NCBI RefSeq assembly: GCF_000027125.1
Contig: NC_017626.1
Direction: 5' to 3' (one strand)
From: Escherichia coli 042
GTDB lineage: Bacteria; Pseudomonadota; Gammaproteobacteria; Enterobacterales; Enterobacteriaceae
Length of the DNA stretch: 64,000 nt
Below the pieces are notes generated by a model. It searched no databases, was not told the origin of the DNA, and saw nothing but the letters and a program-made list of their open reading frames with translations. Both the position numbers and the translations under genes were made by a program. Position 1 is the stretch's first letter, and the number at the start of each line of letters is the position of its first letter. Positions 5,507 through 27,352 of the stretch are shown piece by piece.

Positions 5507-5557
5507 ATACTGTATTTGCCGGCAGCAACAACTGTTGACAAAGTGCGCTCTGTTTAT

Positions 5558-5656
5558 GCCGGATGCGGCGCAAACGCCTTATCCGGCCTACAAAATCATG
5601 CTAATTCAATATATTGCAGAAATATCGTAGGCCTGATAAGCGTAGCGCATCAGGCA
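5558..5656. repeat. Two REP elements in opposite orientation (BIME-like) between convergent yfeS and cysM
   Basis: gccggatgcggcgcaaacgccttatccggcctaca and gtaggcctgataagcgtagcgcatcaggc match the REP family also seen at 6630, 26870-27352, 52003 and 56676. Confidence 0.7.
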
Positions 5657-5694: not shown

Positions 5695-6606
5695 TTAAAT
5701 CCCCGCCCCCTGGCTAAAATGCTCTTCCCCAAACACCCCGGTAGAAAGGTAGCGATCGCCGCGATCGCAGATGATCGCGACCACCACCGCGCCGGGGTTA
5801 GCTTTTGCCACGCGCAGTGCTCCGGCAACCGCGCCGCCGGAGCTGACGCCACAGAATATTCCTTCCCGCACTGCCAGTTCGCGCATGGTGTTTTCCGCTT
5901 CTCGCTGATGAATATCCAGCACCTCATCCACCAGAGAAGCGTTGAAAATCCCCGGCAGATATTCCGCAGGCCAGCGGCGAATGCCGGGAATGCTACTGCC
6001 CTCTTCCGGCTGCAGGCCAACAATGGTCACCGGTTTGGATTGTTCGCGCATAAAGCGTGAAACGCCGGTGATAGTGCCGGTTGTTCCCATGCTGGAGACA
6101 AAATGGGTAATGCGCCCGCCAGTTTGCTGCCAGATTTCCGGCCCGGTGGTGGTGTAATGGGCGTAGGGATTATCAGGATTATTGAACTGATCGAGCAGCT
6201 TTCCTTCACCACGATTCGCCATCTCCAGCGCCAGATCGCGCGCACCTTCCATGCCCTGCTCTTTGGTGACAAGAATCAGTTCCGCACCATAAGCACGCAT
6301 CGCCGCACGGCGTTCCTGGCTCATGTTGTCGGGCATCAGCAATTTCATGCGATAGCCTTTAAGCGCGGCAATCATTGCCAGCGCAATGCCGGTGTTACCA
6401 CTGGTGGCTTCGATCAGCACGTCCCCCGGTTTAATTTCCCCGCGCTTTTCCGCCTCGACGATCATCGAAAGTGCCGCACGATCTTTTACCGAACCTGCCG
6501 GGTTATTGCCTTCCAGTTTCAACCAGATTTCACTGCCGTTATTCGGCCCCATTCGCTGCAACTTCACCAGAGGCGTATTGCCAATTGTTTGTTCTAATGT
6601 ACTCAC
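5695..6606 (-). CDS. cysM: Cysteine synthase B (O-acetylserine sulfhydrylase B)
   Basis: Track ORF 5695..6684; the CysM-like sequence begins at VSTLEQTIGNTPLVKLQR (GTG start at 6606), giving 303 aa; PLP-enzyme motifs; last gene of the cysPUWAM cluster. Confidence 0.93.
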   Translation of the reverse strand: MSTLEQTIGNTPLVKLQRMGPNNGSEIWLKLEGNNPAGSVKDRAALSMIVEAEKRGEIKPGDVLIEATSGNTGIALAMIAALKGYRMKLLMPDNMSQERRAAMRAYGAELILVTKEQGMEGARDLALEMANRGEGKLLDQFNNPDNPYAHYTTTGPEIWQQTGGRITHFVSSMGTTGTITGVSRFMREQSKPVTIVGLQPEEGSSIPGIRRWPAEYLPGIFNASLVDEVLDIHQREAENTMRELAVREGIFCGVSSGGAVAGALRVAKANPGAVVVAIICDRGDRYLSTGVFGEEHFSQGAGI

Positions 6607-6629
6607 GATCTCTATCCATACGTGGTGTT

Positions 6630-6668
6630 GCCTGATGCGACGCTTACGCGTCTTATCAGGCTTACAGG
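6630..6668. repeat. REP element in the cysA-cysM intergenic region
   Basis: gcctgatgcgacgcttacgcgtcttatcaggcttaca fits the REP palindrome family. Confidence 0.6.
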
Positions 6669-6685
6669 TTACAAACCTTGCCATT

Positions 6686-6718
6686 AAAAAGCCCGGATCG
6701 CGGGAAGCGCCTCCGGGC
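6686..6718 (-). terminator. Terminator-like GC hairpin with U-run inside the cys operon (between cysA and cysM)
   Basis: On the minus strand gcccggaggcgcttcccgcgatccgggc is followed by ttttt; probably a partial terminator or RNA-stability element. Confidence 0.4.
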
Positions 6719-6739
6719 GTTTAACATTCACTCAACCTA

Positions 6740-7837
6740 TCAGGCGCTTTGTGCGAGAGCAAGTTCCTCATCGCGGGTTTCAATACGCTCGTCGCCGTTA
6801 TACAGCCGCGCATGTTGCAGACCAACGAATAAACGCTCGCCACGTTGCGGGGCGTCGTCGCCGTGCATCACGACCGTCAGCGCTTCGTTGTACCACCCCA
6901 GCGGCTGCACGACTAATTGGGTGTAGTGGCCTTTCGGGCTGGCTTCCAGTACCTGTACCGGCAGCGGCGAATCGAGGCTGGTACGGCGGCTGATATCCAC
7001 TTCCCAAGGGCGCAGGAAGAGATCCACCGGCCCCTGATACGCAGGTGTGTAGCCCAGCGGCCAGCGATGCGCGCCAACATGGAACTGCCCGCCGCGAATG
7101 GTTCCCTGCAGGCGGTTCACTTCGCCCATAAATTCGAGCACAAAGCGGGTCGCTGGTTCGCGCCATACCTGATCCGGCGCATCAGACTGCTCGATATTGC
7201 CCTGGCTCATCACCACTACACGATCGGCTACTTCGGTCGCTTCTTCCTGGTCATGGGTAACGAATACGCTGGTAAATTTCAGTTCTTCATGCAGTTGACG
7301 CAACCAGCGACGCAGCTCTTTACGCACCTGCGCATCCAGCGCGCCAAACGGTTCATCAAGCAGCAGAATTTGCGGTTCCACAGCCAGCGCACGCGCCAGC
7401 GCCACGCGCTGTTTCTGCCCGCCGGAAAGCTGTGCCGGATAACGATCCGCCAGATGCGCAAGCTGCACCATCTCCAGCAATTTTGTCACTTTCGCTTTGA
7501 TGGCTGCGGCATTCGGGCGCTCGCGACGCGGCAGCACCGTCAGGCCAAAAGCGATATTGTCGAATACCGTCATATGACGGAACAGCGCGTAATGCTGGAA
7601 CACGAAACCGACTTTGCGATCGCGCGCGTGCAGACGGCTGACGTCGGTGCCGTGGAAGCGAATATGCCCGCTGGTTTGATGCTCCAGCCCAGCAATAATG
7701 CGCAGCAGCGTGGTTTTCCCGGAACCAGACGGCCCCAGCAATGCGACCATCTGACCAGAAGGAATATCCAGTGAGATATCGTTCAGCACCTGGGTGCGAC
7801 CAAAAGACTTCTTAATATTGGCAATCTCAATGCTCAT
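6740..7837 (-). CDS. cysA: Sulfate/thiosulfate ABC transporter ATP-binding protein
   Basis: 365-aa ORF with Walker [13 protein letters not shown] signature LSGGQKQR and Walker B LLLDEP; start overlaps the cysW stop. Confidence 0.95.
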
Positions 7838-9535: not shown

Positions 9536-10551
9536 TAATTACGCCCCGCCGCTAACAGCTTGTCTAACTCGCCGCCGCTGGTGAAGTGGGTTTTCATCAC
9601 TTCCGGCCAGGAGCCAAATTTGTCTTCCACGCGGAACAGTTCGGTCTGCGGGAATTTGTCTTTCAGTTTGTCCATGACTTCCGGGTTATTTACGCGGTAG
9701 TAATAGTCGGTGATGATGGTTTGCGCCTGCGGGCTGTAGAGCCAGTTCAGGTAAGCTTTTGCTGCTTTTTCCGTACCGTTGGCCTGCACATTTTTATCGA
9801 CCCACGCCACCGGGAATTCCGCAAGAATGTTAGTTTTCGGAATAACTACTTCGAAGCCCTGCGCTTCATACTGTTTACGAATGTTGTTCACTTCCGATTC
9901 GAAGCTAATCAGCACATCGCCCAGCCCGCGCTCGGCAAAGGTGGTGGTCGCGCCACGGCCACCGGTATCGAACACTTCAACGTTTTTCAGGAACTGGGTC
10001 ATAAACTGTTCGGTTTTGGCTTTGTCGCCACCGTCAGCTTTATCCGCTGCGCCCCATGCCGCCAGATAGGTGTAACGTGCGTTACCCGACGTTTTCGGGT
10101 TCGGGAAAATCAGCTTCACGTCGGAGCGCACCAGATCGTTCCAGTCGTGGATATTTTTCGGGTTGCCCTTACGCACCAGGAAACCCATGGTGGAGTAGAA
10201 CGGCGAGCTGTTATTCGGCAGGCGCGTTTGCCAGTCGGCCGGGATCAGCTTGCCTTTGTCGTGCAGGATTTGTACGTCAGTCACCTGGTTATAAGTGACA
10301 ACGTCGGCTTTTAAGCCCTGCAAAATCGCCAACGCCTGTTTTGATGACCCGGCATGAGATTGTTTTATCGTCAGTTTGTCGCCGCCGTTATCTTTGGCCC
10401 ATTGTTGCTCAAACGGCGGGTTCAGGGCGGCAAACAGCTCGCGGGAGACGTCATAAGAACTGTTCAGCAGTTCCGTTGCCTGTACATGGCCCGCCAGCAG
10501 CAGAGAAGCGACCAGCGCGAGTGAGTTCTTTTTCAGTAAGTTAACGGCCAT
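9535..10551 (-). CDS. cysP: Thiosulfate-binding periplasmic protein
   Basis: 338-aa ORF with signal peptide [25 protein letters not shown]; first gene of cysPUWAM. Confidence 0.95.

Positions 10552-26868: not shown

Positions 26869-27352
<484 letters not shown>

Follow-up and report, generated by a model that had tools for sequence, protein, structure and literature searches.

The genes cysA and cysM, the latter encoding the thiosulfate-using cysteine synthase B (CysM), are neighbours on the minus strand of a 64,000-nucleotide (nt) stretch of Escherichia coli 042 (NC_017626.1), referred to here at its full length as the window. Databases and most transcriptome analyses treat cysPUWAM as one operon controlled by CysB. 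In this work, we describe the spacer between cysA and cysM, which holds a terminator-like hairpin with a run of uridines and a repetitive extragenic palindrome (REP), and which overlaps at its upstream edge with a candidate promoter of cysM. All positions are those of the window, and features lie on the minus strand unless stated otherwise. The DNA is that of E. coli: positions 6400-6950 are 100% identical to strain Ecol_316, and the locus is found in 5425 of 5426 complete genomes.

The coding sequence of cysA occupies 6740-7837, according to the list of open reading frames (ORFs) and the RefSeq annotation of identical and near-identical E. coli records; it ends with the stop codon TGA (6742-6740), and the next bases are TAG. 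The cysM coding sequence of 303 codons (5695-6606, from the ORF list and annotation) begins at a GTG (6606-6604) that is kept in nearly all of the 59 loci compared, and the Shine-Dalgarno region in front of it, UGGAUAGAGAUC, is weak. Between the two genes lies a spacer of 133 nt (6607-6739), which reads, 5' to 3' on the minus strand, TAGGTTGAGTGAATGTTAAAC, the hairpin GCCCGGAGGCGCTTCCCGCGATCCGGGC, TTTTT, AATGGCAAGGTTTGTAACCTGTAA, the REP GCCTGATAAGACGCGTAAGCGTCGCATCAGGC, AACACCACGTATGGATAGAGATC and then GTG. An earlier note, made from the letters of the sequence, had placed the cysM GTG 133 bp past the cysA stop and had read a GC-rich hairpin, UUUUU and a REP in this order on the minus strand; the sequence and the ORF list bear out this layout, and all three elements were located in the spacer. 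The entire spacer folds with an energy of -53.8 kcal/mol (z -3.4). It differs from that of K-12 MG1655 by three bases, all within or beside the REP. Coordinates of MG1655 (NC_000913.3) are obtained by adding 2532977 to the window position.

The GC-rich hairpin, recognized by folding, spans 6691-6718 and is composed of a 7-bp lower stem (GCCCGGA/UCCGGGC) and an inner 3-bp stem (GCG/CGC). A tract of five uridines (U5) follows it at 6686-6690 with 0 nt in between, and this is where the 3' end of terminated transcripts would be expected. The layout of an intrinsic terminator is thus found here, namely a GC-rich stem-loop with a U-run adjoining it without a gap. The folding energy of the hairpin is -18.9 kcal/mol, and 3 of 200 shuffled sequences were equally stable; when the flanking A/U tracts were included, the energy was -19.8 kcal/mol (z -3.2). 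A simple consensus terminator scan of the spacer, which allows 3-8 loop bases, did not detect the hairpin, because the outer stem encloses 14 nt and so exceeds the 8-base limit.

To follow these elements across species, the cysM locus was taken from 80 species genomes, and spacers were kept where cysA directly precedes cysM; the hairpin with its T-run was counted in 57 Enterobacterales spacers of at most 400 nt, and promoter positions in 58-59 species or loci. A hairpin of -8 kcal/mol or lower adjoining a T-run is present in 53 of the 57 spacers, where dinucleotide shuffles of the same spacers predict 10. Runs of T4-T7 adjoin the hairpin in most genera, and the run is interrupted in Pantoea and Erwinia. 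About a dozen unrelated stem sequences carry this architecture in different lineages, including GCCCGG...CCGGGC in Escherichia, Citrobacter and Enterobacter, GCGGCC...GGCCGC in Cedecea, Siccibacter and Shimwellia, GGGCGGG...CCCGCCC in Pantoea, GGCAACCC...GGGTTGCC in Serratia, GCTCATCTC...GAGATGAGC in Photorhabdus and CAGCCTGG...CCAGGCTG in Tatumella. Since the stems are unrelated between lineages, it is the architecture that is conserved and not the sequence. Within the Enterobacteriaceae, the lower stem shows compensatory changes, with pair 4 being C-G or G-C and pair 7 being A-U or U-A.

At the scale of a single species, 4650 of 5427 E. coli records share with the window every base of a 60-nt module reaching from the stop codon to just beyond the U-run, and for the adjacent 60-nt coding pieces the number is 852 (cysA) and 725 (cysM); these counts express identity to the allele of the window and not diversity as such. 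Between the window and Pseudocitrobacter faecalis, one difference was found in the 60 nt of the module, and the flanks differ at 41 of 247 and 31 of 250 positions. Judged from such comparisons, the terminator-like hairpin between cysA and cysM appears clearly to be under selection. The T-run begins 17-41 nt ahead of the cysM GTG in 39 of 43 loci. In Rahnella bruchi (locus L034, 1123-2500), the spacer has grown to 1378 nt with an ORF-sized insert, a new hairpin with T7 precedes cysM, and the start codon of cysM is TTG.

The second element of the locus came to light through transcript data. SMRT-Cappable-seq of MG1655 lists a cysM-only unit, 'b2421', which starts at 2539704 on the reverse strand and is flagged 'novel' (Yan et al. 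2018, PMC6131387, supplementary file 4). The start sites of neighbouring genes confirm that this table is numbered by NC_000913.3. With the offset of 2532977, this start falls on an A at position 6727 of the window, in the context TAGGTTGAGTGA[A]TGTT, 7 nt past the sequence TAGGTT and 9 nt before the hairpin. An extended -10 element, TGATAGGTT, can be read at 6742-6734; its hexamer TAGGTT lies at 6739-6734, and its TG, at -15/-14, is that of the cysA stop codon TGA. The hexamer has A at -11 and T at -7, and the start lies within the 6-8 nt downstream that are usual for a sigma-70 promoter with TGn in front of the -10. A -35-like TTGCTC (6762-6757) is located exactly 17 nt upstream of the -10, within the cysA codons CTT GCT CTC, which belong to the final seven codons of the gene (LALAQSA). 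Among the loci compared, the hairpin and T-run always stand downstream of the predicted cysM start site; in the window, the hairpin spans +10 to +37 of the cysM transcript, and hairpin and U5 together span +10 to +42. No dedicated study of the cysA-cysM spacer, and no reporter or in vitro promoter data, were found in the searchable literature, outside of which the original cysTWAM sequence paper lies.

The proposed promoter is conserved on both sides of the gene boundary. The cysA stop codon is TGA in 55 of 59 loci, and in the six bases that follow it, T-A-n-n-T-T, the four specified positions are kept in 52, 52, 50 and 48 of 59 loci, with neighbouring positions essentially random. The motif TGnTAnnnT sits at the stop codon in 43 of 58 species, and the complete TTG-N17-TGnTAnnnT in 39 of 58. 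In three loci with a TAA stop, the motif is absent and the spacers are long. In the -35 element, the T, T and G recur in 54, 44 and 49 of 58 species, respectively; the middle T occupies a third codon position where changes are synonymous, and carries 0.86 bits, where the other third positions among the final 15 cysA codons carry 0.06-0.55 bits, except that of the final GCC codon. This last alanine codon (6743-6745) is GCC in 52 of 58 species, and its third position, at 1.45 bits, stands far above the others, which could reflect promoter position -16 or the context of the stop codon.

Loci that have lost cysA are instructive in this respect. In Kluyvera and in strain RIT691, an alpha-L-rhamnosidase gene precedes cysM and ends with ...GAC TGA TAG(G/C)TT, after which the hairpin, the T-run and the GTG follow. 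Enterobacter sp. ENT03 has cysM in divergent orientation to a yfeK-like gene and retains a relic, CTGATAAGTTATCGCC, together with the hairpin and T5. As the motif persists where cysA has been replaced, it belongs to cysM and not to the stop-codon context of cysA. The replaced loci are L013 67-2430 (Kluyvera genomosp. 1), L023 1-2433 (RIT691) and L019 166-1842 and 1893-2276 (ENT03); the last of these has the alpha-L-rhamnosidase gene in place of cysA in addition to the yfeK-like gene. In all three, the TGATA(G/A)(G/C)TT motif and the hairpin with its T-run stay attached to cysM.

Transcript boundaries and expression data bear on the upstream genes as well. The table of Yan et al. 2018 (PMC6131387) contains a cysPUWA unit, 'b2425|b2424|b2423|b2422', with its start at 2543558, classed as 'ShorterEnd' relative to the cysPUWAM of RegulonDB, and it lists no unit of cysPUWAM length. 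In RNA sequencing (RNA-seq) of an lsrR mutant of avian pathogenic E. coli (APEC), cysU, cysW and cysA rose 3.4, 6.9 and 9.9 fold and cysM was unchanged; another data set has cysW and cysA among its induced genes but not cysM (PMC13393413). The differential expression of transporter and cysteine synthase B suggested in the earlier note thus finds agreement in one RNA-seq study, where cysU, cysW and cysA rise 3.4-9.9 fold with no change in cysM. This evidence of uncoupling is weak because cysP is also missing from both lists.

The third element is a single Z-type REP at 6630-6665, which consists of a palindrome (6661-6630), GCCTGATAAGACGCG-TAAG-CGTCGCATCAGGC, preceded by GTAA (6665-6662), and which sits in the 5' untranslated region (5' UTR) of cysM, 23 nt before the GTG. 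The palindrome folds with -22 kcal/mol (z -6.7; 0 of 200 shuffles equally stable). The pattern of its arms matches 23 times in the 64-kb window against 4.2 matches expected, which marks it as a member of a dispersed family. At a permissive Rfam threshold, it partly matches the REP-derived naRNA4 with 35.8 bits, under the gathering score of 59.5; the same search returned no riboswitch or leader match and only REP-derived families. The foot of the palindrome reads GTAA-GCCTG in the window, GTAG-ACCTG in K-12, and GTAG with GCCTG or GTCTG in the other E. coli strains aligned, so that the conserved GTAG/CTAC foot, the tetranucleotide recognized by REP-associated tyrosine transposases (RAYTs), is one base off in the copy of E. 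coli 042. An inverted REP pair, the layout of a bacterial interspersed mosaic element (BIME), was not found in the E. coli spacer, which has one REP only.

The distribution of this element differs from that of the hairpin. A REP of the E. coli type is confined at the spacer to E. coli and E. albertii; in Pseudocitrobacter, the corresponding place is taken by two REPs in inverted orientation. No REP was seen in the spacers of Citrobacter, Lelliottia, Cedecea, Pantoea, Serratia and others, which measure 66-82 nt. Several Enterobacter-like genomes carry an inverted pair of a different REP-like palindrome, with the T-run after the second copy. In the sequences compared, REP content turns over between lineages whereas the hairpin and T-run are always kept. 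The REP is thus an insertion limited to certain lineages; most genera with the hairpin lack it, and it is therefore not the conserved working part.

Further REPs occur elsewhere in the window. Just past the cysM stop, REPs are found at 5552-5634, with a partial naRNA4 match at 5552-5588 on the minus strand and a match to Rfam ES036/CssrF at 5592-5634 on the plus strand that reaches 41.1 bits, above the gathering score. At 26920-27351, about five REP pairs (arms GCCGGATAAGACGC and GCCGGATGCGACGC) follow one another at an almost exact spacing of 100 nt, and this region looks like a tandem REP/BIME array.

Taking these observations together, we consider it probable, with some reserve, that two transcription units meet in the spacer, which would form a composite boundary with a promoter of its own for cysM, and that it is not a mere pause inside one operon. 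A weak sigma-70 extended -10 promoter would overlap the end of cysA, with TTGCTC as its -35, a 17-nt spacer that ends in the TG of the stop codon, and TAGGTT as its -10. The transcription start at A6727 was seen in K-12, and the promoter activity is what we infer. Polymerases that come from the CysB-dependent cysP promoter would mostly halt at the hairpin and U5; the cysPUWA mRNA would thereby gain a hairpin-protected 3' end, and cysM would be insulated from the transporter genes. A 3' boundary of cysPUWA ahead of cysM is supported by the transcript table and would lie at the hairpin, with intrinsic termination as the presumed mechanism. The earlier note had proposed attenuated read-through into cysM. 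The conserved terminator-like hairpin and a cysPUWA unit that ends before cysM speak for this proposal, but cysM has its own start site at 6727 with a conserved extended -10, so it is not simply fed by read-through.

The same hairpin would double as the first structure of the cysM transcript. The predicted fold of this transcript encloses the GC stem in a helix of GUUAAA with UUUAAU and has two unpaired nucleotides at the 5' end. Some cysM transcripts do cross the hairpin, because full-length cysM-only molecules were sequenced, and in those that pass it, the hairpin would probably form a 5' stem-loop. The REP would be a later addition of the Escherichia lineage, placed between terminator and ribosome-binding site of cysM, and at most an accessory decay or termination barrier. 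Stabilization of the upstream transcript by the hairpin or the REP is a plausible hypothesis, and the weak ribosome-binding site together with the conserved GTG suggests that translation of CysM is kept low. A more specific version of this model, possible yet doubtful, is that of a conserved nested promoter-terminator module, in which the hairpin would terminate polymerases from the cysP promoter, would be passed by those that initiated 9 nt upstream of it, and would serve the cysM mRNA as a protective 5' stem-loop. The state of early elongation, or translation of a leaderless mini-ORF across the stem, is a possible reason why the fate of the hairpin might depend on the start site.

Several points weigh against a promoter-terminator boundary. 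The -35 and -10 hexamers each match the consensus at only 3 of 6 positions, and a consensus promoter scan of the spacer found no promoter, because both hexamers fall below its 4-of-6 rule. The pattern TTG-N17-TGnTAnnnT occurs once in the 64-kb window, at this site, against 1.7 occurrences expected by chance; it is no rarer than chance, so the argument for the promoter draws on conservation and on the start site mapped in K-12. The start site itself is a single row of one high-throughput table. The tail of CysA is conserved as protein too, and the conservation of this tail and of TGA followed by T could partly reflect constraints of the protein and of translation termination. A terminator so close to the start, at +10 to +42, would be expected to halt the transcripts of the cysM promoter as well, and any mechanism of bypass is hypothetical. 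The curated list of 3' ends obtained by sequencing of transcript termini (Term-seq) in Adams et al. 2021 contains no end in the spacer; it contains none anywhere in the cys operon, and it is therefore a weak, uninformative negative. In Dar and Sorek 2018, cysPUWAM passed a filter against operons with internal start sites or terminators, and it was not called differentially decaying.

One alternative is that cysPUWAM is a single operon, the hairpin with U5 being a leaky terminator, cysM being expressed from read-through only, the REP adding 3' protection, and the mapped start being an artefact or negligible. The conservation of the hairpin with its T-run fits this explanation, as do the weak hexamers of the cysM promoter and the treatment of cysPUWAM as one unit in RegulonDB and the literature. 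In most genera, only 17-41 nt separate the start of the T-run from the GTG, so that every cysM transcript has to cross the run; no downstream promoter fits into this distance, and pure read-through was for this reason favored at first. A promoter between the terminator and cysM was accordingly considered and set aside, as the gap is only 17-41 nt in most genera and the scan found none in the REP-bearing gap of E. coli. However, a cysM-only primary transcript was sequenced and no unit of cysPUWAM length is listed (PMC6131387), TGnTAnnnT is conserved on the stop codon with a start site at the ideal distance, the motif remains beside cysM where cysA is gone, and cysM does not track cysA in two RNA-seq data sets. 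We consider the single operon unlikely. Equally in need of weighing is a decay barrier with no termination, where the hairpin and REP would block 3'-to-5' exonucleases after endonucleolytic cleavage, as is said to happen at malE-malF, leaving a stable cysPUWA fragment and a cysM part of lower stability. The 3' end behind the 'ShorterEnd' class could be a processed one, since the selection in SMRT-Cappable-seq concerns 5' ends only; REPs between tandem genes are generally tied to upstream-biased expression and stabilization; and the T-run is interrupted in Pantoea and Erwinia. Yet T4-T7 adjoins the stem in most genera, which a pure barrier does not need, the REP is absent from most genera, and the operon is not classed as differentially decaying in Dar and Sorek 2018, all of which makes this account rather improbable.

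A conditional terminator in the cysM leader has also to be discussed, that is, an attenuator opened by translation of a leaderless 21-codon ORF or by another factor, in response to a signal separate from CysB. The cysM transcript begins with AUG (6727-6725) and could encode MLNARRRFPRSGLFNGKVCNL, up to a stop codon, across the hairpin (6662-6727, minus strand); ATGTT(T/A)A(T/A)C is kept ahead of the hairpin in Escherichia, Enterobacter, Lelliottia and most Citrobacter loci, and read-through that depends on the start site is a reported phenomenon (PMC6131387). These points are opposed by the spacer folds, which contain no competing antiterminator helix, by the lack of an Rfam leader or riboswitch match, and by timing, as a ribosome would have to load and translate eight codons before the polymerase gets to +42. 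Moreover, the +1 AUG and its ORF are limited to one clade and are not kept in other families, and the mini-ORF idea is therefore treated as speculation; we hold an attenuator to be very unlikely. The neutral explanation, in which the hairpin is a decayed REP-like palindrome, the REP a selfish insertion, and neither has a role in expression, can point to the resemblance of the Enterobacteriaceae hairpin to GCC(C/G)GGTGGCGC...CC(C/G)GGC(CTAC) palindromes, which form inverted pairs in Enterobacter and Kluyvera-like spacers, and to the turnover of REP content at the spacer among lineages. It is scarcely credible in view of a module far more conserved than the flanking synonymous sites, an architecture that about a dozen lineages have formed anew with unrelated sequences, and stem changes that are compensatory. 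The composite boundary with a separate cysM promoter accordingly remains our preferred reading.

Each part of this boundary can be compared with known systems. At malE-malF, a REP is reportedly situated inside an operon, as Newbury et al. are said to have found in 1987. In yjdM-yjdN, REP325 has a dual role of terminator and stabilizer (bioRxiv 10.64898/2026.03.23.713779). The cysA-cysM locus resembles both in having a REP between co-directional genes, a bias toward the upstream gene, and proposed roles as a 3' decay barrier and partial terminator. In contrast to them, conservation here concerns a hairpin with a U-tract that is distinct from the REP. The REP follows this terminator within the 5' UTR of cysM, is single instead of part of a BIME, and occurs in Escherichia only. 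Examples of intrinsic terminators that lie within operons and set gene ratios are T1 between rpsU and dnaG and the rplL-rpoB attenuator. As in these cases, a hairpin with a U-run stands between co-directional genes annotated as one operon, and downstream expression differs; the difference is that the cysM start site lies only 9 nt upstream of the terminator, and since it is located there, one hairpin serves two transcripts.

Stem-loops at the 5' ends of the ompA and papA mRNAs are said to stabilize them, as reportedly described by Emory, Bouvet and Belasco in 1992. The cysM transcript is likewise predicted to start with a stable stem-loop preceded by two unpaired 5' nucleotides; unlike those of ompA and papA, it is followed by a U-tract and would double as the terminator of the upstream unit, and its stabilizing role is hypothetical. 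The promoter shares with extended -10 promoters the TG at -15/-14, the A at -11, the T at -7, a start 7 nt downstream, a TTG at -35 and a 17-bp spacer, and departs from the usual ones in that the stop codon of the upstream gene supplies the TG and the hexamers match at 3 of 6 positions each. Because the TG comes from the stop codon and the -35 lies within the last cysA codons, the sequence is dual-coding. For the passage of one terminator to differing degrees from different promoters, there is an example in Yan et al. 2018 (PMC6131387), where the long transcript reads through more, 32% vs 5%. At cysA-cysM, in contrast, it is the short, promoter-proximal transcript that was seen reading through. 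The types of component, namely a Z-type REP, a terminator-like hairpin and an extended -10, are all already known and none is new. What is less usual is the order of the parts, with a promoter upstream of the terminator of the upstream gene, and a stop codon that doubles as promoter sequence.

A few further features of the locus were recorded. An in-frame ATG at 6684 was considered as the start of cysM, which would add 26 residues and run through the REP; it was rejected, as it has no Shine-Dalgarno sequence, lies directly after the U-run and is not conserved, and the GTG is retained across genera. The plus-strand ORFs 6386-6724 and 6678-6926 are mechanical products, antisense to cysM and cysA, and unsupported. 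Adams et al. 2021 report a very strong region of Rho-dependent termination at MG1655 2543521 on the minus strand (Rho score 17.2, p 5.6e-46), which by the offset corresponds to about window position 10544, in the first codons of cysP, and a second Rho region at 2538040, past cysM and antisense to yfeS. These data suggest that, in rich medium, Rho acts as a further gate at the 5' end of the cys operon.

A promoter of its own and a terminator that shields it from the transporter genes would, if confirmed, allow cysM to be expressed differently from cysPUWA, which would explain data sets where cysA shifts ten-fold and cysM stays unchanged. The junction offers a compact and mutable test case, as the -10 lies outside of coding sequence and a change of TGA to TAA is silent. 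It raises the questions of how a terminator behaves with a start site just upstream of it, whether a stop codon can be recruited into a promoter, and whether a REP added beside a terminator has any effect, for which Citrobacter (without the REP) and Escherichia (with the REP) can be compared. The finding would be of more interest if the hairpin discriminates between polymerases by the position of their start. Should the nested module prove true, 'cysPUWAM' would be two insulated units across the Enterobacterales, and the junction would be a natural model for start-site-dependent termination.

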